Below are positions 7,524 through 35,177 of a stretch of 64,000 nt of DNA, in pieces. The stretch is from an uncultured Acidobacteriota bacterium (lineage in GTDB: Bacteria > Acidobacteriota > Thermoanaerobaculia > UBA5066 > Gp7-AA6): NCBI GenBank assembly GCA_963764715.1, contig CAVXTP010000018.1, forward strand, positions 11,966 to 75,965, given 5' to 3'. The notes under the pieces were generated by a model. That model made no database searches. It saw only the letters and a list, made by a program, of their open reading frames with translations, and was not told where the DNA came from. Positions within the stretch are counted from its first letter, which is position 1; each line of letters opens with the position of its first letter. Made by a program: the position numbers and the translations under genes.

Positions 7524-7539
7524 TGATGCGAATGGATCA
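7524..7539. promoter_or_regulatory. TGATGC-N4-GCATCA-type site (TGATGCGAATGGATCA) in the divergent pat/pfkB promoter
   Basis: Near-palindrome; TAGAGT -10-like hexamer at 7562. Confidence 0.65.
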
Positions 7540-9103: not shown

Positions 9104-9119
9104 TGATGCGATCGCATCA
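9104..9119. promoter_or_regulatory. Perfect 16-bp palindrome TGATGCGATCGCATCA upstream of usp
   Basis: Exact inverted repeat in an intergenic region; an imperfect second copy at 9130-9146. Confidence 0.75.
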
Positions 9120-9180
9120 GGCGGCTCCTCGATGCGGCTGTTATCAAGGTCAAGATGCCGTGGGGATGGAGGTACGACCG

Positions 9181-9588
9181 ATGAAGATCCTGGTGGCGAC
9201 CGACGGCTCGCGCGCGGGCCTGGCGGCGGTGAAGTTCGCGGCGAAGCTCGCGGGGGGGGACCGGGGCAACCGAGTCGTGGTGCTGACCGTCGAATCAAAC
9301 GGAAACTCGGGGGCCGGGACGCAGAAGGTCCTCGAGGCCGCCGCGCGGCAGATGGGCAAGGGCCGCGGCCAGAGCCGGTTCCAGGCGGTTGCGGCGCGCG
9401 GCGTCGAGGTCCCGGAAGTCATTTCGCGGGAGGCGGATCGGTGCCACGCGGACCTCGTCGTCGTCGGCAGCGAAGGCCGGGACTCGCTCGACGAGTGGGT
9501 GGTCGGGGGCACCGCCCTCCGGCTGATCTACGTCGCCCGACGGCCCGTGACGGTCGTGCGGGCGCCACGCAAACGCAAGGCCAGCTGA
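9181..9588 (+). CDS. Universal stress protein (UspA family)
   Basis: MKILVATDGS...ADLVVVGSEGR...VVGGTA...PVTVVR; SD GGAGG. Confidence 0.9.
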   Translation: MKILVATDGSRAGLAAVKFAAKLAGGDRGNRVVVLTVESNGNSGAGTQKVLEAAARQMGKGRGQSRFQAVAARGVEVPEVISREADRCHADLVVVGSEGRDSLDEWVVGGTALRLIYVARRPVTVVRAPRKRKAS

Positions 9589-9644: not shown

Positions 9645-10301
9645 GTGCCACACTCATCTGAAGCCCTCGACCGGATCTCGCGCAGCGGGGAGGCCGTTTT
9701 CGCGATCGATTCGTCCGACCGGGTCATCCTCTGGAACAAGAAGTGCGAGGAGCTTCTCGGCAAGCCCGCGCGCGCCGTGCTCGGGAAGCGCTGTTACGAC
9801 GTCATGGGCGGCCGCGACGAGAACGGCAACGTCTACTGCTACCGGAACTGCCCCGTCGCCTTCCAGGCCCGCGAGCGGCAGAAGGACCCGGTCCACCGGT
9901 TCCAGCTGACCGTCGACTCGGTCAACGGAGCCCGCAAGTCGGTCGACGTCTCGCTCTTCGCCATTCCGTCCTACCACCCGGCGCTCTCGACCCTCGTCCA
10001 CGTTCTGCGGGAGGGAAAGAAGAAACCGACGGCGCTCGAGAAGGTGCTGGCGCAGGAGGCCGAGGTCCGCGAGCCGCTCTGGCCCATGGAGACGAAGACG
10101 GGCCAGCCGATCGATCTGACCTCGCGCGAGAAGGAGATCCTGCGCTGCCTCGCCGAGGGGCTTCCCACGAGCGCGATCGGCAAGAAGCTCTTCATCTCGC
10201 CGGTCACGGTCCGCAACCACATCCAGAACATCCTGCACAAGCTCGACGTCCACACCAAGCTCGCCGCGGTCGTCTTCGCCTACCAGCACAACCTGATCTG
10301 A
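9645..10301 (+). CDS. PAS-LuxR one-component transcriptional regulator (paralog 1)
   Basis: PAS start (EAVFAID...ILWNK); LuxR HTH (LTSREKEILRCLAEG...ISPVTVRNHIQNILHKLDVHTK); C-x15-C-x14-C-x3-C. Confidence 0.88.
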   Translation: MPHSSEALDRISRSGEAVFAIDSSDRVILWNKKCEELLGKPARAVLGKRCYDVMGGRDENGNVYCYRNCPVAFQARERQKDPVHRFQLTVDSVNGARKSVDVSLFAIPSYHPALSTLVHVLREGKKKPTALEKVLAQEAEVREPLWPMETKTGQPIDLTSREKEILRCLAEGLPTSAIGKKLFISPVTVRNHIQNILHKLDVHTKLAAVVFAYQHNLI

Positions 10302-10350
10302 CGGCCCGGCCGGGCCCGGGGAACCCGAGCCCCACCACGTCGTCCCCCGC

Positions 10351-10398
10351 TTACTGATTACTGATTACTGATTACTGATTACTGATTACTGATTACTG
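10351..10398. repeat. Heptanucleotide tandem repeat (TTACTGA)x6 + TTACTG
   Basis: Read directly; perfect AT-rich microsatellite in GC-rich DNA. Confidence 0.98.
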
Positions 10399-10430
10399 CC
10401 GTCTGCCCTCCCGCCGTCCCTCCTCCCGTC

Positions 10431-10466
10431 TGGTGCCGATGCATCAGAAATGATGCAAACGCATCA
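10431..10466. promoter_or_regulatory. Tandem operator pair TGGTGCCGATGCATCA / TGATGCAAACGCATCA upstream of PAS-LuxR paralog 2
   Basis: Two motif copies with starts 20 bp apart. Confidence 0.72.
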
Positions 10467-10519
10467 TCAGGCTTCCGGACGCCCGGAACCACGATGAAAC
10501 CGCCCCTGAAGGAGGTTCC

Positions 10520-11170
10520 ATGGAAGCCTTCGACGAAACGCTCGATCGCATCGCACGCAGCGGAGAGGCGGTGTTCGCGGTCGATGGAGCCAATCGCATC
10601 ATCCTCTGGAACAAGGCCTGCGAGAACCTCGTCGGCCGGCCCGCGCGCCACGCGCTCGGCAAGCGCTGCTTTGAGGTGGTCGGCGGCCGCGACTCCAACG
10701 GCAACGTCTACTGTCATGCGAGCTGTCCCGTCGCGCACCAGGCCCGCGATCTCCGGAACGACCCGGTCCGGCGGTTCGAGCTCGACGTCGCCTCCGGCGA
10801 CGGTGGCCGGCGCCGCCTGTCCACGTCCATGTTCGCGGTCCCGTCCTATCACCCGGCGCTGACGACGCTCGTGCACGTGCTGCGCCCCGCCGAGGGTCCC
10901 TCGGCCGCTCCGGCGCCTTCGGCCGGCGAACGGGAGCCGCTCGCGCCTCTGACCGCGCAGGGGGACGCGGTTGCCCTGACGCACCGCGAAAAGGAGATCC
11001 TGGGCTGCCTCGCGAGCGGCCAGACGACCGTGGCGATCGCGAAGGCGCTCTCGATCGCGCGCGTCACGGTGCGCAATCACGTGCAGAGCATCCTCCAGAA
11101 GCTCAACGTTCACTCGAAGCTCGAGGCCGTCGTGGCCGCGCGTCGGGGCGGGCTGCTCCCGACCTGTTGA
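10520..11170 (+). CDS. PAS-LuxR one-component transcriptional regulator (paralog 2)
   Basis: Collinear with 9645-10301 (shared GGRDxNGNVYC, PSYHPAL, TVRNH); same four cysteines; SD AAGGAGG. Confidence 0.9.
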   Translation: MEAFDETLDRIARSGEAVFAVDGANRIILWNKACENLVGRPARHALGKRCFEVVGGRDSNGNVYCHASCPVAHQARDLRNDPVRRFELDVASGDGGRRRLSTSMFAVPSYHPALTTLVHVLRPAEGPSAAPAPSAGEREPLAPLTAQGDAVALTHREKEILGCLASGQTTVAIAKALSIARVTVRNHVQSILQKLNVHSKLEAVVAARRGGLLPTC

Positions 11171-11183
11171 TGCGCCTGCATCT
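11168..11183. promoter_or_regulatory. Operator copy TGATGCGCCTGCATCT overlapping the regulator stop codon
   Basis: Motif match upstream of the 11219 ORF and the second usp. Confidence 0.65.
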
Positions 11184-11218: not shown

Positions 11219-11443
11219 GTGATCCTCTGCCAGCACTGCTGGCTCGCCCGCCGCGGCCTCTGCGAGGCGACCTGCCGCCCCCAGTCCCCCGTCCGGATCT
11301 ACTGCCTGCAATGCGGCCTCCCGTTGGATGCCGCGCGGCGGGCGGCGGGCCGGGCCGACTGGTGGGTCTGCGAGCGCGGGTGCAACCGGAACGCCGCCGA
11401 GGCGATCGCCGACCGAACCGAACCGGGCCCGCGCTCGCCCTGA
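11219..11443 (+). CDS. Small eight-cysteine protein (putative metal-binding)
   Basis: 74 aa; CxxC-CxxxC-CxxC-CxxxC; fills the gap between regulator and usp. Confidence 0.65.
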   Translation: MILCQHCWLARRGLCEATCRPQSPVRIYCLQCGLPLDAARRAAGRADWWVCERGCNRNAAEAIADRTEPGPRSP

Positions 11444-11468: not shown

Positions 11469-11909
11469 ATGAGCCGCATTCGCAGCGTCTTCTTCGCCAC
11501 CGATTTTTCGCCCGCGTCGCGTCCCGCCTTCCGCCGTGCCGTCGACCTTGCGGCCGCCAGCCGGGCGACGCTCTGGATCGCCCACGTCATCCCCGTGGCT
11601 CCCGCCCACTTTGACGGCGGAGTCCTTCCCCGCATATACCGGGAAATGGATGCCTTCGTCCGGAAGGACGCGGAAAAAAGGCTGCGCGCGCTGGTCGAGG
11701 CCGCTCGGCGCGCGGGCGCCCGGGCCCGGTCCCTCGTCCTCCGCGGTGTGCCGCACGAGGCGATCCGGCGGGCGGCCCGCGGGCGCCGGGCCGACCTCAT
11801 CGTGCTGGGGACGCACGGACGGACCGGGATCACCCGGTTTGTCGTCGGGAGCGTCGCTTCCCGCGTTGTCGCGACGGCGCCCTGTCCGGTCCTGACCGTC
11901 AAGGCCTGA
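11469..11909 (+). CDS. Universal stress protein (UspA family)
   Basis: FFATDFSPAS...ADLIVLGTHGRTG...VGSVASRVVATAPCPVLTV. Confidence 0.93.
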   Translation: MSRIRSVFFATDFSPASRPAFRRAVDLAAASRATLWIAHVIPVAPAHFDGGVLPRIYREMDAFVRKDAEKRLRALVEAARRAGARARSLVLRGVPHEAIRRAARGRRADLIVLGTHGRTGITRFVVGSVASRVVATAPCPVLTVKA

Positions 11910-15407: not shown

Positions 15408-16832
15408 TCAGACGCCAGTCGGGTAGGTCTCCGGCACTTCGCCCCGGGTCCAGATCGCGCCCATCTCGAGGGGCTCGACCGCCCGCGTGTGGTCGATGTG
15501 GATGAGGCCGTCGAACTGCGCCGGCAGCGACGCGTGGAAGTAGTGGCTCGCCCGCTCCGACTCCGGCAGGTAGACGACGCCGATCGCGCGCTCGAGCCGC
15601 GGGTCGTGCAGGGCGCCCACGGGGTCCTCGGGCCCGAGCGGGAGGAAGAACCGCGGTAGCTCGACGCGGTGGAACCGCGCCTCGTAGCTCCCCTCGAGCG
15701 CGGGACGGACGACCCGGCGCTGCGCGGGGCCGTGCCACTCGCTGGCGGCCGTGACCGTCCCGTCGTAGGTGGAGAACCCCAAAAGGTAGGCCTGGGACTT
15801 GTGCCGCTCGCGCACGAGCTGGCCGACGTTCCACTCGCCCTGGAGGCCCATCTCCGTCGCCCGCGCGTCGCCGAGGTGCGAGTTGTGCGCCCACACCACG
15901 ATCCGGGCCGGCCGGCGGTCCGACGAAAGGTGGGCGCGGAGGGCCTCCAGGGTCTCGACCATGTGCCGGTCGCGGAGGTTCCAGGAGAGCACGGACCCGC
16001 GGAACATTCCGCGGTAGTACTCCTCGGCGTTCCGGACCAGGCGGGCGTTCTGTTCCGCGAAGAAGAAGTCGTCCTCGGCCTTCGCGCCGTCGTGCGACAG
16101 GTATTCCGCCGCGGACCGGCGAAGCTCGATGAGCTGCCCGACGGCCTCGTCCTCGCAGGAGCGGCGCAGCCCGAGCTCCGCGGCGTATCCATAGTCCTGC
16201 GCGTCCGCGTGGTCGAAGCACGAGTAGCGGCGGCGCGCGCGCTTCGCCGCCTCGGGGTTCACCGTCGCGAGGTAGGAGACGACGGCCTCCATGGACGCGT
16301 GGAGGCTGTAGAGATCGAGACCGTAGAAACCGACCTTGCGGCCTTTCGGCCCGGCGGCGTCGTTGTGCGCCCGGAGCCAGCCCACGAAGTCGAGGACGTC
16401 GGCGTTGCGCCACATCCAGGTCGGAAAACGCTCGAACCCGCGCAGCGACTCTTCCGCGTCGCCGTCCGCCGAGACGCCCCGCACGTAGCGGTTGACGCGG
16501 TAGGCGTCGGGCCAGTCCGCCTCGACGGCGACCGCGTCGAAGCCCTTCTCGACGATCAGCCGCTTCGTCAGGACGGCGCGCTCGCGGTAGAACTCGTGCG
16601 TCCCGTGCGAGGCCTCGCCGATGAGGACGAGCGGACGCTCGCCGATGCGTTCGAGGAGGAGGTCGTAGTCGTCGAGTGCGCCGGTCAGGGGCCGGAGGGT
16701 CCGGCGCCACGTTTCCGGGGTCGAGAGCTCCTCCGAGAATCCGCCCGGTTCGGGATACTCCGCCGGATCGATGGGATTCGGGTGCGAACAGCGCGTGAAA
16801 CCCGGGTCGGCGGCGGTCGCTCCAGAGAACAT
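15408..16832 (-). CDS. Erythromycin esterase-family protein
   Basis: LIGEASHGTHEFY, AVEADWPDA, FPTWMWRN, WNLRDRHM, VWAHNSHLGDARATE; start uncertain. Confidence 0.9.
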   Translation of the reverse strand: MFSGATAADPGFTRCSHPNPIDPAEYPEPGGFSEELSTPETWRRTLRPLTGALDDYDLLLERIGERPLVLIGEASHGTHEFYRERAVLTKRLIVEKGFDAVAVEADWPDAYRVNRYVRGVSADGDAEESLRGFERFPTWMWRNADVLDFVGWLRAHNDAAGPKGRKVGFYGLDLYSLHASMEAVVSYLATVNPEAAKRARRRYSCFDHADAQDYGYAAELGLRRSCEDEAVGQLIELRRSAAEYLSHDGAKAEDDFFFAEQNARLVRNAEEYYRGMFRGSVLSWNLRDRHMVETLEALRAHLSSDRRPARIVVWAHNSHLGDARATEMGLQGEWNVGQLVRERHKSQAYLLGFSTYDGTVTAASEWHGPAQRRVVRPALEGSYEARFHRVELPRFFLPLGPEDPVGALHDPRLERAIGVVYLPESERASHYFHASLPAQFDGLIHIDHTRAVEPLEMGAIWTRGEVPETYPTGV

Positions 16833-16895: not shown

Positions 16896-17555
16896 TCAAG
16901 GGCGCGCGGCCCGATCCACTTCCGCGATCTCCCGGTCCTGGAGCCGGCCGAACAGGAGCTGCCCGGCGACCGCTCCCGCGAGGCCGAGGAACATGTCCCA
17001 CTGCGTGTCCCAGACGTCCCCCTGGGTCGCGAGAAACGCGGCCGCTTCGAAGCCGGAAAGTTTCGCGGCCCACCACTCGAGAATCTCGTAAACGGCGCTG
17101 CCGCCCAGGCAACTCAGGGCCACGAGCCAGAAGAGCCAGCCCCCGGGCCGCAGCCGGGTCTTCCGCAGAAGAAGCTCCCGCGCGAGGACCGCCGGCGCGA
17201 GGCCGCCGAAGAAGTGCACGACGCGGTCGAAATGATTTCGAGAGAGTCCCAAGGCGTCTCTCCACCAGAGCCCGGCGGGCACTCCCGAGTACGTGTAGTG
17301 ACCTCCGATGACGATCAGGAGGGCGTGGACGAAGAGCAGTCGATACGTCCACCGCGTCAGGCGAAAGCTCCAGAAGGTCGCGAGGAGGATGGGGGCCGCG
17401 AGCAGAATGGGCGCCTCCTCCAGGATCCAGATCCGGCGGTCCGCCGGCGCCAGGCCGGAGACCGTCATCGCCGCCGCCAGCAGAACGAGGAGGACGATCG
17501 GCTCGCGCGGTGTCTTCGTCGCCGGTCGGATCGCGGGGACCGGCGCCCCGCTCAT
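16896..17555 (-). CDS. DUF2238/YjdF-like inner membrane protein
   Basis: GGHYTYSGVP, RNHFDRVVHF, YEILEWW, TQGDVWDTQWDM. Confidence 0.88.
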   Translation of the reverse strand: MSGAPVPAIRPATKTPREPIVLLVLLAAAMTVSGLAPADRRIWILEEAPILLAAPILLATFWSFRLTRWTYRLLFVHALLIVIGGHYTYSGVPAGLWWRDALGLSRNHFDRVVHFFGGLAPAVLARELLLRKTRLRPGGWLFWLVALSCLGGSAVYEILEWWAAKLSGFEAAAFLATQGDVWDTQWDMFLGLAGAVAGQLLFGRLQDREIAEVDRAARP

Positions 17556-17634
17556 CCGCGCGCGCCGCACCCCGGCCGGGAACCGGCCGGCGCCCCGGTG
17601 GGGACGGGACGCCGGCCCCCCGTGCGGCCCGGGT

Positions 17635-18312
17635 CTAGTTCCACGGGCTCACGGCCAGGTGATCGCGGACCTCGCGGACGCCGGGGGCGTGGCTGACGGC
17701 ACCGAGGACGGCCGTCTTTTCCGGCCACGTCCGGACGCGGCCCTCCAGGGTGACGATCCCGTCGTCGACGGCAACGCGGACTTTCTCCGCCTCGCGTTCG
17801 GCCCGGCGCTCGAGCGCCTGCTCGATCGACTTGCGCAGCTGCGCGGGGTCGGCCTTCGCCTTCGCCACGGTCAACCAGTTGTTGACGCCCTGGACGCCCT
17901 TGACGCTCCGGATGGCGCGGGCCGCATCGTCCTTCTGACGAAGCGTGTGAACCTCGCCTTCGAGCGTGACGAGGCCGTCCGACACGGTCGAGCGGATGTT
18001 CTGGTCCGGCACGAAGGCTTCCCATTCCAGGGCGAGCCGCACGTCCTGGGCGATCTCGGTATCGGTCCGCTGGAGGCTTCCCGGGAGCTTGATCCGAACG
18101 TCGTCGGCGACGTCGCGGACCCCGACGACGCGATGAGCGGCTTCCTTCGCGGCGAGCTTCTTGGCCCAGCTGTCGACGGTCCCGGTCAGCGTGACGACAC
18201 CCTCGTCGACCTCGACGCCGACCTCCTCCTGGCGAATTCGCGAATCCCACCGCAGCTCGTTCAGGACGTCTTCCTGAATCTCACGATCGGTTCTGACGGA
18301 CATGACGGGCAT
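17635..18312 (-). CDS. Triple BON-domain (OsmY-like) protein
   Basis: Three repeats of V-x-V-x-x-G-x-V-T-L-x-G-x-V. Confidence 0.9.
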   Translation of the reverse strand: MPVMSVRTDREIQEDVLNELRWDSRIRQEEVGVEVDEGVVTLTGTVDSWAKKLAAKEAAHRVVGVRDVADDVRIKLPGSLQRTDTEIAQDVRLALEWEAFVPDQNIRSTVSDGLVTLEGEVHTLRQKDDAARAIRSVKGVQGVNNWLTVAKAKADPAQLRKSIEQALERRAEREAEKVRVAVDDGIVTLEGRVRTWPEKTAVLGAVSHAPGVREVRDHLAVSPWN

Positions 18313-18372
18313 GACGACCCTCCTTTCGAGGTTATCCCTCCTATCGGATACACCCCGCCGGCGGACCGGGAA

Positions 18373-18428
18373 AGATGCCGCTGCATCAACCGCGCGGGCG
18401 GCGGCGGCCGGATGATGCTCCTGCATCT
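18373..18428. promoter_or_regulatory. Operator pair AGATGCCGCTGCATCA (18373-18388) and TGATGCTCCTGCATCT (18413-18428) in the divergent BON/hydrolase promoter
   Basis: Two motif copies with starts 40 bp apart. Confidence 0.72.
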
Positions 18429-18504
18429 TTCGGCCGGGAATGGATCCGAGTCATCGTCGGGATGCGAGCCCAGGCGAACCCGGCCGGGCCCGGGGAGGTG
18501 TCAC

Positions 18505-19224
18505 ATGACGAAGCAAGGGGGAACCGAGGCGGGGGAGGTCCATCTCGCGATCCCGTCGAGCCGGCTGACCGGGAACCTCGAGATTCCGGACCCGGCCGAG
18601 GGCCTGGTGATTTTCGCGCACGGGAGCGGCAGCAGCCGCCGGAGCCCGCGCAACCGGTTCGTCGCGCAGAAGCTCCGGGATGCCGGCATGGCCACGCTCC
18701 TGACCGACCTTCTGACCCCGGAGGAGGAAGCGCTCGATCTGGAGCAGGGGCATCTGCGATTCGACATTCCGTTTCTCGCGGGGCGGCTCCTGGCCGTGAC
18801 CGACTGGGCCGCGCGCCACGACGCCGTCGGCCGGCTGCCGCTCGGCTACTTCGGCGCCTCGACCGGGGCCGCGGCCGCGTTGCTCGCGGCGGCGGAAAGA
18901 GGCGGGGCCGTCCGCGCCGTCGTCTCGCGCGGCGGGCGGCCGGATCTCGCGGGCACGGCGCTTCACCGCGTCACGGCGCCGACGCTGCTGATCGTCGGCG
19001 GGGCCGACGTGGACGTCCTCGAGCTGAACCGGGCGGCGCTCGCGGGCCTGCGCTGCGAGAAGGAGCTCCGCATCGTGCCGCGCGCGACCCACCTCTTTCC
19101 GGAGCCGGGGGCTCTCGAGAATGTCGCGGGGCTGGCGGCCGCCTGGTTCCGGCGGCACCTGGGAACGACCGAATGGGCGCCGGCTTCGGGCGATCGGCTC
19201 GAGGTCTCGGTGCGGGGGGAGTGA
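18505..19224 (+). CDS. Dienelactone hydrolase-like alpha/beta hydrolase
   Basis: FAHGSGSSRRSPRN, GYFGASTGAAAAL, VSRGGRPDLA, ATHLFPEPG; SD GGAGG. Confidence 0.88.
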   Translation: MTKQGGTEAGEVHLAIPSSRLTGNLEIPDPAEGLVIFAHGSGSSRRSPRNRFVAQKLRDAGMATLLTDLLTPEEEALDLEQGHLRFDIPFLAGRLLAVTDWAARHDAVGRLPLGYFGASTGAAAALLAAAERGGAVRAVVSRGGRPDLAGTALHRVTAPTLLIVGGADVDVLELNRAALAGLRCEKELRIVPRATHLFPEPGALENVAGLAAAWFRRHLGTTEWAPASGDRLEVSVRGE

Positions 19225-19225
19225 G

Positions 19226-19939
19226 ATGAGCATGATCTTTCGTGATCGCCGTCAGGCGGGCCGCGTGCTCGGCGAGGCGCTGGCGCATTACGCCGGACGG
19301 TCCGGCGTGATCGTCCTGGCCCTTCCGCGGGGAGGCGTGCCCGTCGGCTTCGAGGTCGCGCGGGCGATCGGCGCGCCGCTCGACGTCTTTCTGGTGCGCA
19401 AGCTCGGATTTCCGGGCAACGAGGAGTTCGCCATGGGCGCGATCGCGTCCGGCGGCGTCCGCGTGCTCGACGAGGCCCTGCTCCGTCGCGTCGGGATCTC
19501 GCCCGCCGCGGTCGAGCGGGTCGTTCAACAGGAGGAACGGGAGCTGCGCCGCCGCGAGTACGCCTACCGCGGCAAGGTCCCTCCGGCCGAGCTCGCCGGG
19601 CGGACGGTCATCCTCGTCGACGACGGGCTGGCGACGGGATCCTCGATGCGTGCGGCCGTGAAGGCCGCGCGCCAGCGCGGGGCGCGCCGCATCGTCGTGG
19701 CGACGCCCGTGGGCCCGGCCGACACGGTCCGCGAGCTCGCGCGGCTCGCCGACGAGGTCGTCTGCCCCTCGACGCCGGAACCCTTCCTCGCCGTCGGGCG
19801 TTTCTACCAGAACTTCGACCAGACCGAGGACGCCGAAGTCGTCGAGCTGCTGGAAGAGTCCCGCGCCGGGGAACCGAAGCCGGCCGATCCGCCGCCCGTG
19901 CGTTCCCGAGGGGGCGTGCACGGAGGGACCCATGCGTAA
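19226..19939 (+). CDS. Putative phosphoribosyltransferase
   Basis: FRDRRQAG, LALPRGGVPV, PRPP loop VILVDDGLATGSS. Confidence 0.9.
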   Translation: MSMIFRDRRQAGRVLGEALAHYAGRSGVIVLALPRGGVPVGFEVARAIGAPLDVFLVRKLGFPGNEEFAMGAIASGGVRVLDEALLRRVGISPAAVERVVQQEERELRRREYAYRGKVPPAELAGRTVILVDDGLATGSSMRAAVKAARQRGARRIVVATPVGPADTVRELARLADEVVCPSTPEPFLAVGRFYQNFDQTEDAEVVELLEESRAGEPKPADPPPVRSRGGVHGGTHA

Positions 19940-21638: not shown

Positions 21639-21654
21639 TGATGAGATCGCATCA
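21639..21654. promoter_or_regulatory. Operator copy TGATGAGATCGCATCA upstream of ferredoxin
   Basis: Motif match about 50 bp upstream of the ATG. Confidence 0.72.
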
Positions 21655-22359: not shown

Positions 22360-23202
22360 TCACTCCGGGCGCGGCACGGGCTCGAATTCGTACAGCGATG
22401 CGGCCAGACGCTTCAGCCCGCGATCTCGCGCAATGAGGTCGAGGTGGAGTGAGGTCCAGTCCGATAGCAACAACGTCTCGTTGCCGTGCCCGTCGTATGT
22501 CTTGAGGTAGCCCCCGCACGAATCGCACGAGTCGATGCGAAGGCCGCCGTCTCCCTCGACGGTGAGGGCCGCGAGGCGCTGAGTATCGCCTTCACAGAAC
22601 GGGCACGCGGTGCGCCGGAACTGCCAGCGGCTGCCGCAGCAGCCGCACGCCAGGAGCCGCTTGCGTCCCGGATCGGCGCCGACCAGCTGGGCCATGGCGG
22701 GAGCCGATCCGCACACCGGGCAGTAGGGGCGAAGCCACTTTTCGTCGTCGCGCCAGGCCTCGAACGCGGTCACGAGCGGCGCCAGGTACCGCGCGGCGGC
22801 CGTCCAGCCCAGGTAGCGCAGCAGCCCCGGCGACGGCGGCGCGAAGGACTCGTCGCCGAGCAGCCAGTCCCCGATCCGCCGCGGGGCCTCGGGCTCGCGG
22901 CGCAGGACGGCGTCCAGGGCGGCGAGGTCCGAGGCGAAGGAGTCCGGGGAAGGCTCCGATGCCAGCTTCGCGACGAGCGCCACGGCCGCCGTCCCCGCCG
23001 GCTCGAGGTCGACCGCGGCATCGGAGCCGCGCAGGAGCGGCACGCCGGCGAGAAAGTCGTTGCGGTAGTCGCCCCAGCACGGCACCGGTGCGCCGGCGGA
23101 CGCGATCCCCGCCGCAGCGCGGTCGACTCGTGCGCAGAAGCCCGCGACCGCCCGCAGGTACGCGTGAGCCTCCAGCCAGCCGTCCCGGGTCCAGTGGCTC
23201 AA
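22360..23202 (-). CDS. fdhE: Formate dehydrogenase accessory protein FdhE
   Basis: CPVCGS, CGCCG..W...R..CPFC, RIDSCDSCGGYLK; TTG overlaps the upstream stop. Confidence 0.88.
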   Translation of the reverse strand: MSHWTRDGWLEAHAYLRAVAGFCARVDRAAAGIASAGAPVPCWGDYRNDFLAGVPLLRGSDAAVDLEPAGTAAVALVAKLASEPSPDSFASDLAALDAVLRREPEAPRRIGDWLLGDESFAPPSPGLLRYLGWTAAARYLAPLVTAFEAWRDDEKWLRPYCPVCGSAPAMAQLVGADPGRKRLLACGCCGSRWQFRRTACPFCEGDTQRLAALTVEGDGGLRIDSCDSCGGYLKTYDGHGNETLLLSDWTSLHLDLIARDRGLKRLAASLYEFEPVPRPE

Positions 23203-25394
23203 TGTCCCTCGCTGGGCTCCGCCCGGGAGAGAACCGGCATGAGCCGGGCCGCCAGGCCGAAGAGAAAGATCGTCGCGGCGATCAAGCCGATCGAAACGCC
23301 CCACTCGAAGATCGACGGCACGTAGGCCCGGGGCGCGACCCAGGGCATCCGGCCGTGGAAGGTCATCGCGAAGAGGACGACGTTCATGCGGTTGTACACG
23401 ACGCCGAGGACCGCGAGCAGGGCCGCGACGAAGAGCGCGTCGGGGCGCTCGCGGAGCGACCGGCGGGCCAGCATGAGGAGCGGGAGAACGCCGCCGAGGA
23501 GGATCTCGGCCGCGAAGGCCGGGCCCAGCCGCCCGGAGAAGGCGCTCGCGAGCTGGTTTCGAATTGCCATGTCCCCGAGGCGAAACACGAGGTAGACGAG
23601 GAGCGCCCAGAACGCGATCTGTCCGACCGCGGCGAGCCGCGTCATCTCGAGCGGGCGGCGCCACCCCTTCGCAATCCCCATGTCGATGAGGATCACGAGC
23701 GCGGTTCCGGCCACGATCGACGACAGGAAGAAGGAGACGGGCATCACGGGGGACCACCACTGCGGGGCGAGCAGGTTCGGCATCAGCAGGTACAGGGAGC
23801 CGAGCGAGCTCTGGTGCATCGTCGACAGCGTGACGGCGGCGATCGCGAGCATGATCGGCTCGGCCCGGTCGTCCCGCGCGCGAAAGAACCAGGCGAGGGC
23901 GCCGAAGATCACCGCCGTCGCAAGGGTGTAGAGGAGGTTGCGCGAAAGCATGTAGACGAACAGCGTCACCGCCGCCGCCACGTAGGCGCCGTTCCACCGC
24001 CGCCAGGCCGCCGCCGCCCGCTGGAATCCCCAGCGCTCGAAGGGAACGGGGAGGAACTCGAGCAGGAGGATCGTAACGTAGAGGCCGACGCACCACGAGA
24101 CCTCGAACATGGCCGAGTGCTCCGGAGCCTGCAGGCCGAGCTGGTAGAAGTGCCAGGGCAGGCCGAGGTCGGCGACGAGCGTGACCGTCACGAAGGAATA
24201 GCTCAGGAGGCCCATCAGGACGGCCGTGCGGCCCAGCCCGTAAAGGTCCTTTCGCTGGAGGACGTAGATCACGCCGGCCATCGCGAACGCGCCCGCGGCC
24301 ACCGCGATCCACACCAGGTCGAAGAGGATCCACAGGCCCCACGGGTAGGTGTCGGAGAGGTGCGTGCTGCCGCCGAGCCCGAGGGCGAAGCGCGCCACCA
24401 TCGAGACGCCGCAGAACGCCATGAGCAGGAGGAGGACCCAGTTGAAGGGGGTCATCAGCTCGTTCCGGAGAGGCTCGAATTCGACGTGGCCGTGGTCTCC
24501 GGAATGCTTCGACGCAGCCGATCCGTCCGCCGCCGCCTGAACCCGCTTCCGGAAGAAGGCGTACGCGGCGCCGAGCAGGGCGCCGACGGCCATCACGGCG
24601 GGGGGAACGGCGCCGAGCGCCGCCCTGGTGAAGGCCGGAAAGGGCTTCTCCCCGAACGTCGGGAAGCCGAGCTTCTCGAACGGCACGGTCGACAGGTACA
24701 CGACGCTCGTCCCGCCCAGCTCCTTCTCTCCGTAGACGTGATCGACGTATTTGTCGGGCCGGTCGGAGATCCGCTTGTGCGCGAGCGCCAGCATCTCGTC
24801 GCGGGTTCCGTAGCGCAGGGCGTCGGCGGGGCACGCCTTGACGCAGGCGGGAGTCGCGATGGTATCGAGGAAGCGCTTCGTCTCGTCGGGAGGGGCCGGC
24901 TGACCGTTGAACGCGATCGGCGCCGGCTGCGGGGCCCGGTCCGCGCAGTGCGTGCACTTCTCGATCTTCGGAGCGAGCCTGTCCCACTCCGCGGTCGGCA
25001 CGTCCCAGGGACACGCCAGCATGCAGTAGCGGCAGCCGATGCACTTGTCCGCGTCGTAGGAAACGGGCCCGTCGGGTTGCCGGTAGAGCGCCGTCGTCGG
25101 ACAGGCGGAGACGCAGCCCGGCTCCAGGCAGTGGAAGCACCGCCGCATCACGAAGGCGGAATCCAGGCCTCCCGGCTTCTGCGGGTTCTCCATCTCGTGA
25201 AACGAGATCAGGGTGTACGTTTTCGCGCTGAGCGTCGCCGGGTTCTGGAAGCCCAGTTGGGCCTGCAGCTCCGTCTCCTCGCCCTCGCGCTCGTTCCACT
25301 GCTTGCAGGCCACCTGGCACGCCCGGCAGCCGATGCAGTTGGCGATGTCGATCAGCGTCGTCCGGATCGGGCCGGCGGCCGCGGCGTGCGTCAC
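23199..25394 (-). CDS. Fused FdnH/HybA-like Fe-S subunit + NrfD/HybB-like membrane anchor
   Basis: CIGCRACQVAC, CFHCLEPGCVSACP, CIGCRYCMLACP, KCTHC...CVKACP, then PWGLWI, SAMFEVSWC, STMHQSSLG; GTGA overlap with the fdnG stop. Confidence 0.88.
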   Translation of the reverse strand: MTHAAAAGPIRTTLIDIANCIGCRACQVACKQWNEREGEETELQAQLGFQNPATLSAKTYTLISFHEMENPQKPGGLDSAFVMRRCFHCLEPGCVSACPTTALYRQPDGPVSYDADKCIGCRYCMLACPWDVPTAEWDRLAPKIEKCTHCADRAPQPAPIAFNGQPAPPDETKRFLDTIATPACVKACPADALRYGTRDEMLALAHKRISDRPDKYVDHVYGEKELGGTSVVYLSTVPFEKLGFPTFGEKPFPAFTRAALGAVPPAVMAVGALLGAAYAFFRKRVQAAADGSAASKHSGDHGHVEFEPLRNELMTPFNWVLLLLMAFCGVSMVARFALGLGGSTHLSDTYPWGLWILFDLVWIAVAAGAFAMAGVIYVLQRKDLYGLGRTAVLMGLLSYSFVTVTLVADLGLPWHFYQLGLQAPEHSAMFEVSWCVGLYVTILLLEFLPVPFERWGFQRAAAAWRRWNGAYVAAAVTLFVYMLSRNLLYTLATAVIFGALAWFFRARDDRAEPIMLAIAAVTLSTMHQSSLGSLYLLMPNLLAPQWWSPVMPVSFFLSSIVAGTALVILIDMGIAKGWRRPLEMTRLAAVGQIAFWALLVYLVFRLGDMAIRNQLASAFSGRLGPAFAAEILLGGVLPLLMLARRSLRERPDALFVAALLAVLGVVYNRMNVVLFAMTFHGRMPWVAPRAYVPSIFEWGVSIGLIAATIFLFGLAARLMPVLSRAEPSEGH

Positions 25395-28300
25395 GTGCGC
25401 CTCCCCGGGGGCCGGGATCTTTTCGCCGCCGGGCGCTCGGCCTTGACCACGTTGACGAGGCACGCCTTGGTCTCCTGGGTCCCCGCGCCGGGATCCGTGG
25501 CGTCGATCGTGAGGTGGTTGACGCTGGGACCGGTCGACAAACCCTGGAAGCCGAAGTTGTACGGCATCCAGACGATCGTGACTTCGCGGTCGCCGATCTT
25601 CAGCGCCTTCATGCGCGGCGTGACGAGGGCCTTGACCTCGAGCTCACCGCGCGCCGACGAGACCCGGACCCAGTCCCCCGATTTCACGCCGAGCTTCTGG
25701 GCGAGGGCGAGCGGCATCTCCACCACCGGTTCGGGGACGAGCTCGTTCAGCCAGGGGATGTTCCGCGTCGTCGAGCCGCCGCACCAGTGTTCGGCGACCG
25801 TCGACGTCATCAGCACATAGGGGTACTTGTCGGCGGTGCCGATCGGCTGATGCGTTGCGACGCGCGGGTACTTCAGCATCGGGTTGCTCTTCACGCCCGG
25901 ATGCAGGACGTTTTCCACCGGGCTCTCGACGGGCTCGTACATCTCCGGCAGCGGGCCGTCCTTCGGCACGTAGGCCACGTCGCGCGGATACCCCGGATGC
26001 TTCTCGTCCGGGTCCGAGTAGACGGCCGCGAAGAGTCGCCCGACGCCCTCCGCGCCCAGGTGGAAGGGGCGCTTGCCATTCGGCGTGTCCGGCCCGTCGG
26101 TCAGGACGGGGACGTCCGGAACGTCGTATCCCGTCCAGCGCTTCGCCTGCTCGTCCCACCAGACGATAGGTTTCGAGCCCGGATAGGGCTTGCCGTTCCG
26201 GTCGCAGGAGGCCCGGTTGTAGAGGATGCGCATGTTGTTGGGCCATGTCCACCCGAAGCCCGGGTAGAGGCCGAGGCCTCCCGGATCCGTTCGCGAGTCG
26301 CGGCGCTTCGAAAGATTCTCGCCGTTGGCGAAGACCCCCGCGTAGATCCAGGCGCCGGACGACGTCGAACCGTCCGCCCGAAGATCGCCGACCTTGCGGA
26401 CGAGATCGCCCGCCTTCAGTCCGGTCTCCGGGTTGTCGCGCAGGGCGTACCCGTTGATCTCGCGTAGCACGTCCTCGGCCGTGGTGTAGGTCCAGAAGGC
26501 CTTCTTGATGCTCTCGTCCCTCGGCTCCGTCGAATCCTTGACCAGATCGCGCACCTTGCGGAAGACGCGGTCCACGATCTCGCCGTCGGGCCGGGCCTGC
26601 CCGGGCGGCTTCACCGCGGCGTGGCGCCACTGCACCATCCCGCCCGAGTTGCTGATGGTGCCGTTCTTTTCCATGAAGAACGCGGCGGGCAGCAGGATCA
26701 CTTCGGTCGCGATGGTCTTCGGGTCGACGCCGGGCCGCCGCCAGAACGCGGCGGTCTCGGTCTCCCAGATCTCCTGGACCACGAGGGTCTCGAGCTTCGC
26801 CATCGCGTCGAACGTCAGCGTGAGGTTGGGCACGGTGACCGCGGGGTTCTGGCCGACGATCCAGAGGACCTTCAGCTTCCCGGCGAGGGCATCCTCGAAC
26901 ATCGGCATCGTCCCGTAGTCCTTGGAGGCGTTCCGTTTGGGCAGCCAGCCATAGGCATAGTCGTTCTCGGCGGTCGCCGCCTCTCCGTAGAACGCCTTGA
27001 GCGTGTTGACGAGGTACCGGCTGTCGGCGATCCCGTTCTTGCGCACGTAGTCGTAGATCGTCGGCTCGGCGCTCGACGGCGAGTTGAGGTAGCCCGGCAT
27101 GTAGTTGTAGAGCACCGCCATGTCGCAGGCGCCCTGCACGTTCGGCTCGCCGCGCAGCGCGTTGACGCCGCCGCCCGGCTTTCCGATGTTGCCGAGCAGG
27201 AGCTGCAGGATCGTGAACGAGCGGATTCCCTGCACGCCGGTCGTGTGCTGGGTCATCCCGAGGGCGTAGAGAATGGATCCCGGCCGGTTCTTCGCCATCA
27301 TCTCCGCGATATGCCGGATCTGGTCGGCCGGAATGCCGGTGATCTGCTCGCCCGTCTCGAGCGTGTACCGCGAAACGAAGGTCTTCAGGCGCGAGAAGAC
27401 GCAGTGCGGGTCATCCAGGCTCCTGGCGACACGCGGCTTGCCCTTCGCGTCGAGCTGGTATCCCCAGCTCCGGGTGTCGTACTTGTGGTGCTCCGCGTCG
27501 TACCCGCTGAAGACGCCATCCTTGAAGTCGAAGGCCTCGTCGCCGAGGTAGAGGGCGTTCGTGTGGTTCACGACGTAATCCTCGTCGTACAGCTCGTGGA
27601 CGAGGATGTGGTTGATCATGGTGTTCTGGAAGGCGGCGTCCGTGCCGGGCCGAATGCGCGCGTACACGTCCGCCCCCGCGGAGGTCCGGGTGAATCGCGG
27701 ATCGACGTGAATGATCTTCGCCCCGTTCTCCTGTGCCTTGCGGATCCACTTGTAGGCCATGGGGTGGTTTTCGGCGACGTTGCTGCCTTCCACCAGGATC
27801 GTCTTGCAGTTCTGCAGGTCGAGCCAGTGGTTGGTCATCGCCCCCCGCCCGAACGAGGCCCCCAGACCGGGGACCGTGGGGCTGTGTCAAAGTCGGGCCT
27901 GGTGCTCGACGTAAGCCAGGCCGAGCAGCCGGGCCGCCTTCTGGAAGAGGTAGCACTCCTCGTTCGTGTTCTGAGCGCCGCCCAGAAAGCCGATCGCGTC
28001 CGTCCGATTGACGGGAACCTCTTTGTCGCCGACCTTCTCGGTGGCGATCCAGGTCGCGTCGCGCGTCTTCCGGATCTTCTGCGCGACCCGCTCGACCGCG
28101 TCGTCCCAGGTGATGTCCTCCCAGTGGTCGCTGCCCGGCGCCCGGTAGCGGGGCGTCTTGAGCCGGCTCGGGGAAGTGTGCGTCGCGAACATGGAAATGC
28201 CTTTGACGCACAGCGATCCGCGGTTCACGATGTGGTCGTAGTCGCCCTCCATCGTCAAGAGCTTGCCGTCGCGGACCGCGGCGATCATGCCGCAGCCGCA

Positions 28301-28531
28301 CGAGCAGAAGTTGCAGGACGTCGTGAACTCGCTCACGTCCGAAAGCTTCAGCTCTCGCACGGCGGCTCTCATCGCGGGCACGTCGATGAACCCGTCGAGC
28401 GCGAGCCCCGCGCCACCGCAGACGGTCAACCGCAACAAGTCGCGGCGGTTGACCGAAGTCGACGCTCGCGGCCGACTCTCGTCTGCCCGAAGAGAGAGGT
28501 CCGGGATCGGAGTCTCCGGAGGTTTATCCAC
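25391..28531 (-). CDS. fdnG: Selenocysteine-containing formate dehydrogenase alpha subunit (Mo/W-bisPGD), Tat-exported
   Basis: RRDLL Tat motif; CNFCSCGC Fe-S motif; HQARL-[TGA 27887-27889]-HSPTVPGLGASFGRGAMTNHW; ALRGEPNVQG; joins two ORF-track ORFs in frame. Confidence 0.93.
27857..27875 (-). other. SECIS-like hairpin GGTCCCCGGTCTGGGGGCC
   Basis: Stem-loop starting 12 nt after the in-frame UGA, with G in the apical loop. Confidence 0.75.
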
Positions 28532-28906: not shown

Positions 28907-28922
28907 TGATTCAATCGCATCA
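28907..28922. promoter_or_regulatory. Operator copy TGATTCAATCGCATCA inside island A
   Basis: Motif match; TAGGGT -10-like hexamer at 28945. Confidence 0.68.
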
Positions 28923-32108: not shown

Positions 32109-32870
32109 TCACCTTGCGGCGCGGTTCGGCCTCTGCCGCGCGAGGAGGAGAAGGCGCATCAGCCCGTCGACGTCGGCCTGGCCCCGGAGGTAGTAGGACG
32201 CGGCGGACGCGGGACTTGCCCCCACACGGATGGTGAGAAAGCGCGCAGGCTGCTTGAGAGCGAAGACATCTTCATCCGTTTCATCGTCTCCCACGTAGAT
32301 CGCGGTGTCACATCCGAGACGCTCGCGCTCCCTCTCGAGGGCCATACCCTTGTGAGGGGCGCCCCTCGGGAGGAGGTTGATGACCAGAGCGCCGCCGACG
32401 ACTCGGACATCGTTCAAAGCCGCCGCCGCCTCCATGATCGCCGCTCGTGCCTTCTTCTTGTCACGCGACTGACGGTAGTGGACCGAAATCGAAAAGACCT
32501 TGTCCTCGATGCTCACTCCTCGAATGGGCGAGAGCCTCTCTTCCAACAGCGGCCGCCAGCGTTCGATCTCCTCCTTCAGCCGTGCCGAAGCCCCCCAGGG
32601 TTCGATTCCGTGGTTGCCGACGACCCCGTGCACCGGGATACCGCGCAGTCGCTCCAGGACGCTGGTCCGCGCGCGGCCGGAGATCACGACGCATGAATAA
32701 AGATTCGTGAGATCACCCAGCAGCCGCGACGTTGCCGGGCGAAGATGCGCTCGTTCCGGAAGAGTCACGATCGGAGTGAGGGTCCCGTCGAAGTCGAAGC
32801 CGAGCAGCACGTTCGATCGGGCAAACTGCTCGACGATTCGCCGATGGGCCGGCAACAGGATGTTCTTCAT
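32109..32870 (-). CDS. otsB: Trehalose-6-phosphate phosphatase
   Basis: HAD motifs DFDGTL, VISGR, GNHG, EDK..SVHYR, HKG, YVGDDETDEDVF. Confidence 0.93.
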   Translation of the reverse strand: MKNILLPAHRRIVEQFARSNVLLGFDFDGTLTPIVTLPERAHLRPATSRLLGDLTNLYSCVVISGRARTSVLERLRGIPVHGVVGNHGIEPWGASARLKEEIERWRPLLEERLSPIRGVSIEDKVFSISVHYRQSRDKKKARAAIMEAAAALNDVRVVGGALVINLLPRGAPHKGMALERERERLGCDTAIYVGDDETDEDVFALKQPARFLTIRVGASPASAASYYLRGQADVDGLMRLLLLARQRPNRAAR

Positions 32871-35119
32871 GGAGAGTGCTGCGCCACCGGAACGAGATGA
32901 TCGGTCAGGCGGCCTGTGAGTCGGTCACGGCTGCGGAGGCGAGCGGCATCGACGAGCATCCTCCCCGCCCAGCGATAAACATTGAACTCGGAGAGGAAGG
33001 CCCGCATGGACCGCATGCGGTCCCCCTGCTCTGCCGGAGACATGGCGAGGGCGGCTGCTAGGGCAGAGCTCGCCTGGTCGAAGTCGTAAGGGTTGACGAT
33101 CAGCGCCTCGGTCAGCTCACGCGCCGCGCCGGTGAACTGACTCAGGACCAGGACGCCGCGCTCGTCCTCCCGGGCCGCGACGAACTCTTTGGCAACCAGA
33201 TTCATGCCGTCGTGGAGGCTGCTCACGTAGCACAGGTCGGCTGCCCGGTAGTACCGAAACACGGTCGGGGGCTCGTGGTGGGTTCGCCGCAGGACGATCG
33301 GACGGTAGTTTCCCTGACTGAACCGATCGTTGATGCGCGCGGCCACACGTTCCACGTTCTCGTTGAGCTGCTGGTAGCGCTGGATGACGGTTCGACTCGG
33401 GGCCGCAAGCTGAACGAAGGTAAATCGACCGCGGAATTCCGGAAACCGTTCCAGCAAGCGCTCGACGGTGAGGAGCCGCTCCTCGATTCCCTTCGTGTAG
33501 TCGAGGCGGTCCACGCCAATACCCAGGAGGGCGTCCGGGGCCAGCCCGAGCTCCTGGAAAAGGCTCCTTCGGCACTCTTCGGCGGGCGGAGCCGTTTTCG
33601 ACCACCGCACGGGCCATTCGAGCGAGATCGGGTAGGGACGCACCAGCGTGCTTCGCCCGTGCTGGACGACCGCGTTCTGCTCCCGGTCGATCCGGGCCTC
33701 GAGCAGCCGATCCACGGAATCCACGAAGTTATTGCAGTGGGATTGGGTGTGAAAGCCCAGGATGCTCGCGCCGAGCATTCCCTCGAGCAACTCGTTGCGC
33801 CAGGGGCAGATGCTGAACAGCTCCGAGTTGGGCCAGGGGATATGCCAGAACATGATCACGGTCGCCCGGGGCAGCCGCTCACGAATGAGATGGGGTACGA
33901 GGGCGAAGTGATAGTCCTGAACGAAGACGATCGGGTCTTCCGAGTCCACCTCCGCGCAGAGAGCGTCCGTGAACTTCTGGTTGACGGCCTGATAGTGCTT
34001 CCAGTCCTCGCTTCGGAAGACGGGGCGGGCATGTGCGAGGTGGCAAAGGGGCCAGAGACCCTCGTTGGCAAAGCCGTAGTAGTAACCCTCCTCTTCTTCG
34101 GGAGAGAGCCAGACCCGCCTGAGCAGGTAGGACTCTTCGCCGGGCGGCACGCGGATCCGCCCGTTCTTGTCTGCCGTCTGCCGGTCCGCGGAACCGCCCC
34201 CGTGGGCGATCCAGACTCCGGAGCAGGCCCGCAGGACCGGCTCGAGCGCGGTGACGAGACCGCTCGCGGGATGAACGACGACGACACCGCCGTCCTCGGT
34301 CCGCTCATGAATATACGGTTCGCGATTCGCGACGATGACGACTCTCTCGAGGTGGAGGTACCGGTTGAGCGTCTGCTTGAGTCGCTGCGGCGTCCAGTCG
34401 CCGCCTTCAAGGTCGGCTTGCTTCTCGGCAACGATGCGATCGACGAGCTCGCGGACATCCCCGAGGATGGGCCGGAACTCGGGGTGAGGCGTACCGCTTC
34501 GGAGGAAGCTTCGGAGCTCTTTGCTCCAACCGCGCCAGGACAGCCGGGCCGCGATGGCAGTCACGGCAGAGGCGGCCACCGCGAGGAACCCGAAAGCCAG
34601 GAGCAGGAAGTTCCGGGTCTTCGCTTCTCGTCGTTCGACGAAGCTCAGATCGTGCACGAGGACGACAAATCCCAGCGGCTGATCTCCATCGGACACGGGC
34701 ATGGCGCTGACGTGGACCTTGCCCCCGGGCAGCGGCAGGACGCTCTTCCAGGGGTGCCAGCCGGTTGCGGGTTCGCCGGCGGCGGGACGGACATGTTTGG
34801 CGAGTTCTTCGCAGCCGAGCTGCTTGGGGTAGTCCGGCGTTCGCGTCAGCAGTGTGAGGTCTGCCGTGCACGCCGCGGCCGCCATGATGCGCTCATCGTG
34901 AGTGATCTCGACGAGCAGGTTCCGCAAGTCGGCCCGCTGCTCCTTGTGCCAGTGCGAGATCAGGGCCTGGCGGGCCCCGCTCACCGCGAGTTGCGCGCGC
35001 AGGCTCACGTCCTTCTCGAACCAGCCGCGCGTGGTCTCGTTGACGGTGACGGAGGCCACCCAGGTGAGAAGCCCGAGCCCGAGGATCAGAGCGACGGCGA
35101 ATTGGAATGCGCGACCCAT
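32867..35119 (-). CDS. otsA: Trehalose-6-phosphate synthase with N-terminal 2-TM/extracytoplasmic extension
   Basis: VANREP, ASGLVTAL, YYYGFANEGLWPLCH, QDYH, FWHIPWP, GVDRLDYTKGI, DGMNLVAKE. Confidence 0.92.
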   Translation of the reverse strand: MGRAFQFAVALILGLGLLTWVASVTVNETTRGWFEKDVSLRAQLAVSGARQALISHWHKEQRADLRNLLVEITHDERIMAAAACTADLTLLTRTPDYPKQLGCEELAKHVRPAAGEPATGWHPWKSVLPLPGGKVHVSAMPVSDGDQPLGFVVLVHDLSFVERREAKTRNFLLLAFGFLAVAASAVTAIAARLSWRGWSKELRSFLRSGTPHPEFRPILGDVRELVDRIVAEKQADLEGGDWTPQRLKQTLNRYLHLERVVIVANREPYIHERTEDGGVVVVHPASGLVTALEPVLRACSGVWIAHGGGSADRQTADKNGRIRVPPGEESYLLRRVWLSPEEEEGYYYGFANEGLWPLCHLAHARPVFRSEDWKHYQAVNQKFTDALCAEVDSEDPIVFVQDYHFALVPHLIRERLPRATVIMFWHIPWPNSELFSICPWRNELLEGMLGASILGFHTQSHCNNFVDSVDRLLEARIDREQNAVVQHGRSTLVRPYPISLEWPVRWSKTAPPAEECRRSLFQELGLAPDALLGIGVDRLDYTKGIEERLLTVERLLERFPEFRGRFTFVQLAAPSRTVIQRYQQLNENVERVAARINDRFSQGNYRPIVLRRTHHEPPTVFRYYRAADLCYVSSLHDGMNLVAKEFVAAREDERGVLVLSQFTGAARELTEALIVNPYDFDQASSALAAALAMSPAEQGDRMRSMRAFLSEFNVYRWAGRMLVDAARLRSRDRLTGRLTDHLVPVAQHSP

Positions 35120-35177
35120 GCCGGCCATTGAAGCACAGAGGCTTTGGGGCAACAACCGAATCTGTTAGCTTCCGTGC

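Follow-up and report, generated by a model that had tools for sequence, protein, structure and literature searches.

The window analysed here, a 64,000-nucleotide stretch on a 76-kb contig (C18) of an uncultured Acidobacteriota genome (4.36 Mb, 70% G+C), carries two adjacent genes for small regulators that consist of a PAS domain and a LuxR-type helix-turn-helix (HTH). From sequence comparison, we lean towards the view that these paralogs are self-activating, one-component iron-sulfur (Fe-S) sensors of redox state or oxygen that switch on a set of low-oxygen dormancy genes. The close relatives of the locus are found in metagenome-assembled genomes of Acidobacteriota/Thermoanaerobaculia, and a survey of sequencing runs returned small shares in soil metagenomes only, with no RNA set listed.

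Paralog 1 (218 aa, GTG start) occupies positions 9645..10301 and paralog 2 (216 aa) positions 10520..11170, both on the + strand. The two are co-directional and 59% identical over 213 aa. In each, Pfam recognises a PAS fold just above the cut-off (23-27 bits) and a GerE/LuxR HTH (63 bits) and nothing else, both being generic families, and no NCBIfam model reaches its cut-off. Pfam finds no receiver domain (Response_reg) in either protein, and contig C18 holds none of the 48 Response_reg and none of the 41 HATPase_c matches of the genome, in agreement with an earlier note on this DNA that had described the pair as free of kinase and receiver. A third paralog lies on contig C22. Orthologs of paralog 1 are 74-95% identical in related loci (L010-L015, L018 and L019), and paralog 1 is better conserved across these loci than paralog 2. 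Adjacent regulator pairs occur in 8 of the 16 genomes of one family (f1) that hold the PAS domain, and on comparative grounds the tandem pair is old. In one genome of the same genus, the paralog 1 ortholog (G032:C1:686884-687528) has a single in-frame TGA and may be a pseudogene or reflect an assembly error.

Both paralogs carry cysteines spaced C-x15-C-x14-C-x3-C (C34, C50, C65 and C69 in paralog 2 numbering) together with the motif GGRD(E/S)NGNVYC. This architecture, proposed in the earlier note, is confirmed by the translations, by Pfam and by 121 of 121 close homologs (at least 61% identity), all of which keep the four-cysteine spacing. The same note had called all four cysteines invariant and had suggested an alignment of homologs as a check. 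For a more distant set, the PAS part alone was compared with 1.84 billion cluster representatives; 138 of the 150 matches listed (those shorter than 420 aa) were aligned, and 12 long multi-PAS proteins were left out. Among these representatives, C50 is conserved in 137/137, C65 in 136/138, C69 in 134/138, H119 in 121/126 and an acidic residue at position 52 (E/D52) in 118/137, the exceptions being mostly truncated fragments. C34, however, is a cysteine in 48/136 and an alanine in 81, so that invariance of the fourth cysteine holds in the close clade only. Because C34 is replaced by alanine in most distant members, the family signature is three cysteines plus His119 (and Glu52). The ligand set would accordingly be three cysteines with His119 and/or Glu52, rather than four invariant cysteines. 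Among 90 aligned members, C50 and C65 are invariant and C69 and H119 are present in at least 90%; W30, N31, D22, G47, G56, D58 and G61 are also near-invariant, and C34 and C55 are optional extra cysteines.

An AF2 model of paralog 2, built on the 90-sequence alignment, has a pLDDT of 91.7 and shows a canonical PAS topology, a low-confidence linker and then a four-helix HTH. By DSSP assignment of this model, C50 stands where the E helix begins, C65 comes after a small hairpin (57-63), C69 lies just before the F helix and H119 is in the middle of the Ibeta strand. In PAS topology, the E/F-helix and Ibeta area is where cofactors bind. A fold search returned the PAS-LuxR regulators VqmA, EL222 and 3clo as full-length matches. 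The PAS part alone behaved generically, with Z about 13-14 to many PAS domains and no metal-site homolog standing out. Searches of Protein Data Bank (PDB) sequences with the whole protein, the PAS part and the family profile gave HTH matches and chance-level PAS matches only, and a complex prediction of the homodimer with Zn and 4Fe-4S gave no answer (score 0.16).

Guidance on the cofactor comes from OrpR, a sigma-54 activator of Desulfovibrio vulgaris Hildenborough with an N-terminal PAS domain. According to the OrpR paper, this domain holds a [4Fe-4S]2+ cluster sensitive to redox state, contains a conserved D/E54 and needs C52, C61 and C65 for sensing, and the protein is active when conditions are anaerobic and of low potential (PMC8359166). 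When the family was aligned by hhalign with seven PAS-sigma54-HTH_8 proteins (probability 99.0, E 3e-18, 114 columns), C50, E52, C65 and C69 fell on the C, E, C and C of those proteins. Three PAS cysteines, with an acidic residue at +2 from the first of them, are therefore in register with the OrpR-type module; the family has 6 additional residues between cysteines one and two, which correspond to the GRDxxGN hairpin, and H119 falls on a Glu. This in-register homology makes a redox- or oxygen-labile Fe-S cluster the most likely occupant of the site, and it lends comparative backing to the Fe-S proposal of the earlier note. The paralogs share with OrpR the N-terminal three-cysteine PAS with its acidic residue, the design of a one-component transcription activator and, as proposed here, activity at low redox potential. 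They differ in output, which is AAA+/HTH_8 in OrpR and a LuxR HTH of the sigma-70 class II activator type in the paralogs, where Pfam gives PAS and GerE and no sigma-54 AAA+ or HTH_8 domain. They also differ in spacing (C-x8-C-x3-C in OrpR, C-x14-C-x3-C with the inserted hairpin here) and in having His119 where OrpR-like proteins have Glu.

The three-cysteine PAS domain is not confined to these two outputs. A family HMM run over matches from 201 Desulfobacterota genomes detected PAS domains that carry G-x-x-C-x-[ED]...C-x3-C(P) and are joined to Sigma54_activat plus HTH_8 (C-x8-C-x3-C, the OrpR spacing), to GGDEF (C-x15-C-x3-CP), and to SpoIIE, HisKA kinase and GAF domains. The cluster representatives add one fusion with a class III cyclase and one with BTAD. 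A word-based search for such longer fused forms had found none; they were later found by the family HMM.

The second body of evidence concerns a 16-bp palindrome, TGATGC-N4-GCATCA, hereafter the box. The genome contains 10 perfect copies against 0.09 expected from base composition, and 30 one-mismatch copies against 4.1 expected. Thirty of these 40 boxes lie at most 400 nt upstream of a called gene, or 34 with a looser open reading frame (ORF) caller. A TANNNT hexamer begins 22-24 nt past the box at 13 of the 40 sites, compared with 0.7% of random positions, which places the box centre near -42.5. This is the position of a class II activator. No complete sigma-70 promoter was found between 9000 and 11600, which fits activator-dependent promoters. 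The palindrome that the earlier note had recognised is thus well supported, but its label as an operator is not, since its position is that of an activator box.

At the locus itself, a perfect box (TGATGCGATCGCATCA, 9104..9119) stands upstream of the unit formed by a universal stress protein gene (USP1) and paralog 1, with TATCAA at 9142-9147, 22 nt beyond it. A box with at most one mismatch occupies the same position in L010, L011, L013 and L019; none is listed in L012. The promoter of paralog 2 has a perfect proximal box (10451..10466), followed by a conserved CACGAT (10490-10495) that is the likely -10 element, and a distal box with one mismatch (10431..10446) whose centre is 20 bp from that of the proximal one. 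An extra palindrome at 10440-10457 is the junction of these tandem boxes, which together form four half-sites at 10-bp spacing. A third box (11168..11183, one mismatch) overlaps the stop codon of paralog 2 (its TGA), precedes a small ORF and a second universal stress protein gene (USP2), and is found at the same place in L010, L011, L012 and L019. All three copies that the earlier note had placed around paralog 2 are therefore real, although the third belongs to the next promoter downstream. In 9 of the 10 related loci holding upstream DNA, a box lies about 55-90 nt (<100 nt) upstream of the orthologous regulator. In the tenth, L018, which has a paralog 1-type gene, the box stands before the preceding USP gene instead.

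The paralogs are likely the proteins that bind this box, judging from its distribution across genomes and from their recognition helix. In a sample of 151 genomes of the class, which are kin, the 44 with the PAS domain contain 154 perfect boxes in all, compared with 26 in the 107 without it (0.24 each); a control with the reversed pattern gave 9 matches in all. Within family f1, the 16 genomes with the PAS domain hold 105 perfect boxes (mean 6.6). The only two f1 genomes without the regulator, G072 and the unpublished G004, have 0 boxes, and regulator and box are both present in their genus-mates G124 and G040. The genome has 14 LuxR-type open frames by the search made, and the recognition helix VTVRNH..L.KL.VH is seen only in the three paralogs and in a stand-alone HTH. 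The latter is a LuxR HTH of about 80-105 aa with no sensor (L004:1486-1803; G000 C6:340694-341011) and has its own box at the start; it may compete with the regulon or brake it.

The genes next to boxes point to the physiology under control. Thirty-eight box-adjacent proteins were compared with Pfam, together with the window's own genes. They include four USPs, two ribosome hibernation factors, pyruvate:ferredoxin oxidoreductase (PFOR), a 2-oxoacid:ferredoxin oxidoreductase (OFOR), a NiFe-hydrogenase small subunit, a ferredoxin and FeoB, as well as an MtrC-like multihaem cytochrome, a cytochrome b, a dihaem peroxidase and CcmE. Further members are a hemerythrin/DUF2249 protein, pfkB, a CBS protein, a phosphoribosyltransferase, a GAF-HisKA_3 kinase operon and the stand-alone LuxR HTH. 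Judged by these annotations, the box-preceded genes serve anaerobic and dormancy physiology, and their redox/oxygen theme agrees with that suggested in the earlier note. Two GAF-HisKA_3 kinase/REC-LuxR operons of the DosS/DosR-like kind are preceded by boxes (L094:1229-2488 (-) and downstream; G000 C10:145-148 kb), which suggests a two-component layer under the PAS-LuxR regulon.

From domain content, conservation, box statistics and positions, co-occurrence and profile homology, we infer a cofactor, a signal, a direction of switching and a box-binding protein. A site in the PAS pocket formed by Cys50, Glu52, Cys65, Cys69 and His119 would hold a redox- or oxygen-labile Fe-S cluster. Under anoxia, or when the redox potential is low, the holo-protein would dimerise, probably by HTH release as in EL222 and FG214. 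On comparative evidence, the dimer would then bind TGATGC-N4-GCATCA at about -42.5 and recruit RNA polymerase as a class II activator. As boxes precede both paralogs, one before the USP1-paralog 1 unit and two, 20 bp apart, before paralog 2, the circuit would be subject to positive feedback, and feedback as such had been envisaged in the earlier note; paralog 1 would ride on the USP1 promoter. The activated set would comprise the USPs, hibernation factors, PFOR/OFOR, NiFe hydrogenase, ferredoxin, FeoB, cytochromes and pfkB-CBS genes. Paralog 3, for which no box within three mismatches was found, could be a constitutive trigger, and heterodimers of paralogs 1 and 2 may also form.

Several points weigh against this mechanism. 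The hhalign score alone is weak, as PAS profiles align easily, and it is the in-register Cys and Glu columns that carry the argument; the seven sigma-54 proteins are putative OrpR orthologs by architecture and motif. The spacing is x14 here versus x8 in OrpR, a difference explained by the 6-residue hairpin, and the candidate ligand on Ibeta is His here and Glu or Gln in other branches. Within the LuxR branch, the Fe-S cluster is a putative one, and the spatial clustering of the Cys and His residues is predicted from PAS topology. Box and regulator co-occur among kin, and the stand-alone HTH co-varies too. No box within three mismatches was found in 3.6 kb at paralog 3 (C22). In addition, wherever Pfam does not confirm a gene, its call and start codon were set by an ad hoc caller based on GC3.

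A Cys3-His set is also a classic zinc site, and the same residues could bind zinc, either structurally, with the PAS domain sensing another ligand, or as a thiolate switch of the RsrA/Hsp33 type that loses Zn on disulfide formation. Such sites with C-x3-C at a helix N-terminus after a beta-hairpin have typical zinc-knuckle geometry; by DSSP, the C-x3-C of the model is placed in this zinc-knuckle-like way, and C34 and C55 could serve as the optional additional cysteines. We nevertheless consider zinc unlikely, because the residue on Ibeta varies between His, Glu and Gln among branches, Gln being a poor Zn ligand, and because the regulon is one of anaerobic metabolism rather than thiol-stress defence. 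Moreover, among homologous sites only that of OrpR has been characterised, and its ligand is Fe-S, not Zn (PMC8359166). A further candidate is haem b, with Cys69 (in a Cys-Pro dipeptide) and His119 as axial ligands and O2, NO, CO or redox state as the signal. C69-P70 resembles a haem regulatory motif, a DosR-like regulon stands under haem sensors in mycobacteria, and the PAS fold matches the haem sensors FixL, EcDOS and FG214 at Z about 13. The last of these is, according to its preprint, an existing haem-PAS one-component switch (bioRxiv 10.64898/2026.03.15.711900). However, fold scores are alike for haem and non-haem PAS domains, three invariant cysteines exceed what haem ligation needs, the position of His119 is Glu or Gln in sister branches, and OrpR spectra indicate Fe-S (PMC8359166). 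Haem is thus the least probable of the cofactors considered, and we think it very unlikely.

Independently of the cofactor, the PAS-LuxR genes could be mere members of the regulon, with the box bound by the stand-alone LuxR HTH on contig C6 or by another factor. The stand-alone HTH shares the recognition helix, comes with a box of its own and was likewise not found in G004 and G072, and the two GAF-kinase/response-regulator operons carry boxes too. Against this, the recognition helix differs in the response regulator next to the GAF kinase (TVEFHKYQ), a REC-LuxR regulator (C19) is retained at 66% identity in the box-less G004, and a LuxR protein of contig C26 was found in 0/5 genomes searched, including G032 with its 11 boxes. 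An HTH without a sensor cannot alone make a regulon conditional, and in 9/10 loci the boxes are close to PAS-LuxR genes. Binding by either of these is therefore improbable, somewhat more so than zinc and less so than haem, and the PAS-LuxR paralogs remain our candidates for the box-binding activators.

Known regulators offer partial parallels. The earlier note had named the kinase NreB as its comparator. The NreB PAS domain of Bacillus licheniformis holds a three-Cys [2Fe-2S] cluster (PDB 9WEX), that of Staphylococcus carnosus a [4Fe-4S] cluster, and the motif is C-x2-C-x11-C(-x2-C) (PMC13478379). The likeness lies in PAS Ealpha-Falpha cysteines, which hold Fe-S in NreB, the last of them just before the short F helix. 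However, NreB is a histidine kinase, and the paralogs have no kinase output (neither HisKA_3 nor HATPase_c); the motif differs from C-x15-C-x14-C-x3-C, PDB sequence searches gave no NreB match, and the B. licheniformis protein senses sulfide. NreB is accordingly set aside as a comparator. EL222, VqmA and the Bacteroides protein 3clo share the two-domain PAS-LuxR architecture, are the best full-length fold matches and probably share the logic of HTH release and dimerisation. Their sequence identity to the paralogs is 15-19%, though, and neither EL222, which binds flavin, nor VqmA, which binds DPO, has a Cys3-His site. A LOV domain carries the flavin-binding motif GXNCRFLQ and a conserved Gln on Ibeta; the paralogs have GKRCFEVV in place of the flavin motif and His at Ibeta, with PAS_9 below cut-off. 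FG214 (10jx) was considered as a relative and rejected, as it is an HTH-PAS bis-His haem protein of another family.

At the level of the regulon, there is a resemblance to the mycobacterial DosR regulon. In the DosS/DosT-DosR system of Mycobacterium tuberculosis, a LuxR/NarL-type HTH drives USPs, pfkB, a CBS protein, a ferredoxin, a ribosome hibernation factor and a phosphoribosyltransferase. DosR differs in having a receiver domain and a haem-GAF kinase, neither of which takes part in the pathway proposed here, and in its palindrome; the paralogs have no phospho-accepting receiver of the DosR/NarL class. FNR is an oxygen-labile Fe-S activator that acts from about -41.5 on feoB, ccp, hydrogenase and PFOR genes, and the likeness lies in this chemistry and in a box near -42.5 before anaerobic genes. 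FNR has a Crp fold, whereas the paralogs lack both a cNMP-binding-like fold and an N-terminal Cys cluster. The FNR site consensus is TTGAT-N4-ATCAA. FNR was rejected as the binder of the box because the spacing is unlike this consensus and a Cys motif of the FNR type was not found; in this genome, two Crp-family proteins score above the HTH_Crp_2 cut-off, and they have no N-terminal Cys cluster.

PAS-LuxR one-component regulators and Fe-S PAS sensors are each already known. A literature search found nothing on the LuxR branch of the Cys3 PAS family or its box, and in these searches no publication described the combination of PAS-LuxR with Fe-S, the Cys3-His variant or a DosR-like regulon in Acidobacteriota. 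Soil harbours Thermoanaerobaculia and other Acidobacteriota in abundance, most of them uncultured, and the proposed mechanism concerns their way of sensing the loss of oxygen and entering dormancy. If it is true, a single protein of about 215 residues would be their master hypoxia switch, and the 16-bp box would define a readable regulon that is testable by gene synthesis without culturing. The OrpR-type three-Cys PAS site would also extend from one studied Desulfovibrio protein to a portable module with many outputs, and a compact transcription factor responsive to oxygen or redox state could become a biosensor scaffold. A bolder version, speculative and doubtful as a whole, would make the system the acidobacterial counterpart of FNR and DosR, in which a kinase-free Fe-S Cys3-His PAS-LuxR protein directly converts redox state or oxygen into class II activation of a dormancy regulon. 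The constitutive, box-less paralog 3 would act as the trigger, paralogs 1 and 2 would amplify with different thresholds or as heterodimers, and the sensor-less HTH would be the brake. The Cys3 PAS module, with its sigma-54, GGDEF, SpoIIE, kinase, cyclase and BTAD outputs, would then be a widespread, unnamed family of Fe-S sensors.

The neighbouring genes and remaining boxes of the window complete the picture of the locus. USP1 (9181..9588, +) starts with MKILVATDG, matches Pfam Usp at 1.6e-17 and is syntenic in 9/11 related loci. A small conserved ORF of 74 aa (11219..11443, +) directly follows the third box and precedes USP2 (11469..11909, +; Pfam Usp 3.5e-31). Its 8 Cys form four C-x2/3-C pairs of zinc-ribbon-like appearance; it is 77-79% identical in L010, L012 and L019 and has no Pfam or NCBIfam match. 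Between the paralogs, a perfect, strain-variable (TTACTGA)x6.9 microsatellite spans 10351..10398. The array is absent elsewhere in this genome of 70% G+C; in locus L010, which is 90% identical, its place is taken by (TTACTGC)x~3.7, and L019 and L011-L013 have none. Since loci of 90% identity lack the array or have another version of it, a role as an operator was rejected. The array is a hypervariable spacer that separates paralog 1 from the promoter of paralog 2, and it probably plays no part in the mechanism.

Further one-mismatch boxes are scattered through the window. One at 7524..7539 (C18:19489) lies upstream of the pfkB-CBS genes, with the -10-like hexamer TAGAGT beginning 22 nt beyond it, and another at 21639..21654 is upstream of a 4Fe-4S ferredoxin gene. 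Two boxes 40 bp apart (starts 18373 and 18413, spanning 18373-18428) fall inside an ORF at 17308-19224 that has no Pfam match; either this ORF is spurious or the sites are intragenic. Genes at 15408-16832 (-), 19121-19939 (+) and 32867-36944 cluster around the boxes; they are of the erythromycin-esterase-like, phosphoribosyltransferase, DUF5335, DUF1028, GT20 trehalose-phosphate synthase and GH15 trehalase-like kinds, a combination that recalls DosR-regulon genes of mycobacteria. A box at 28907..28922 lies between a divergent Mo-oxidoreductase operon and a gene at 29002. This operon encodes 4Fe-4S and NrfD subunits (23199-25463) and a molybdopterin oxidoreductase (25391-28531, -) in a single frame with an in-frame TGA (…HQARL-U-HSPTV…). 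The oxidoreductase probably contains selenocysteine, and the window also encodes SelB, at 50593-52497.

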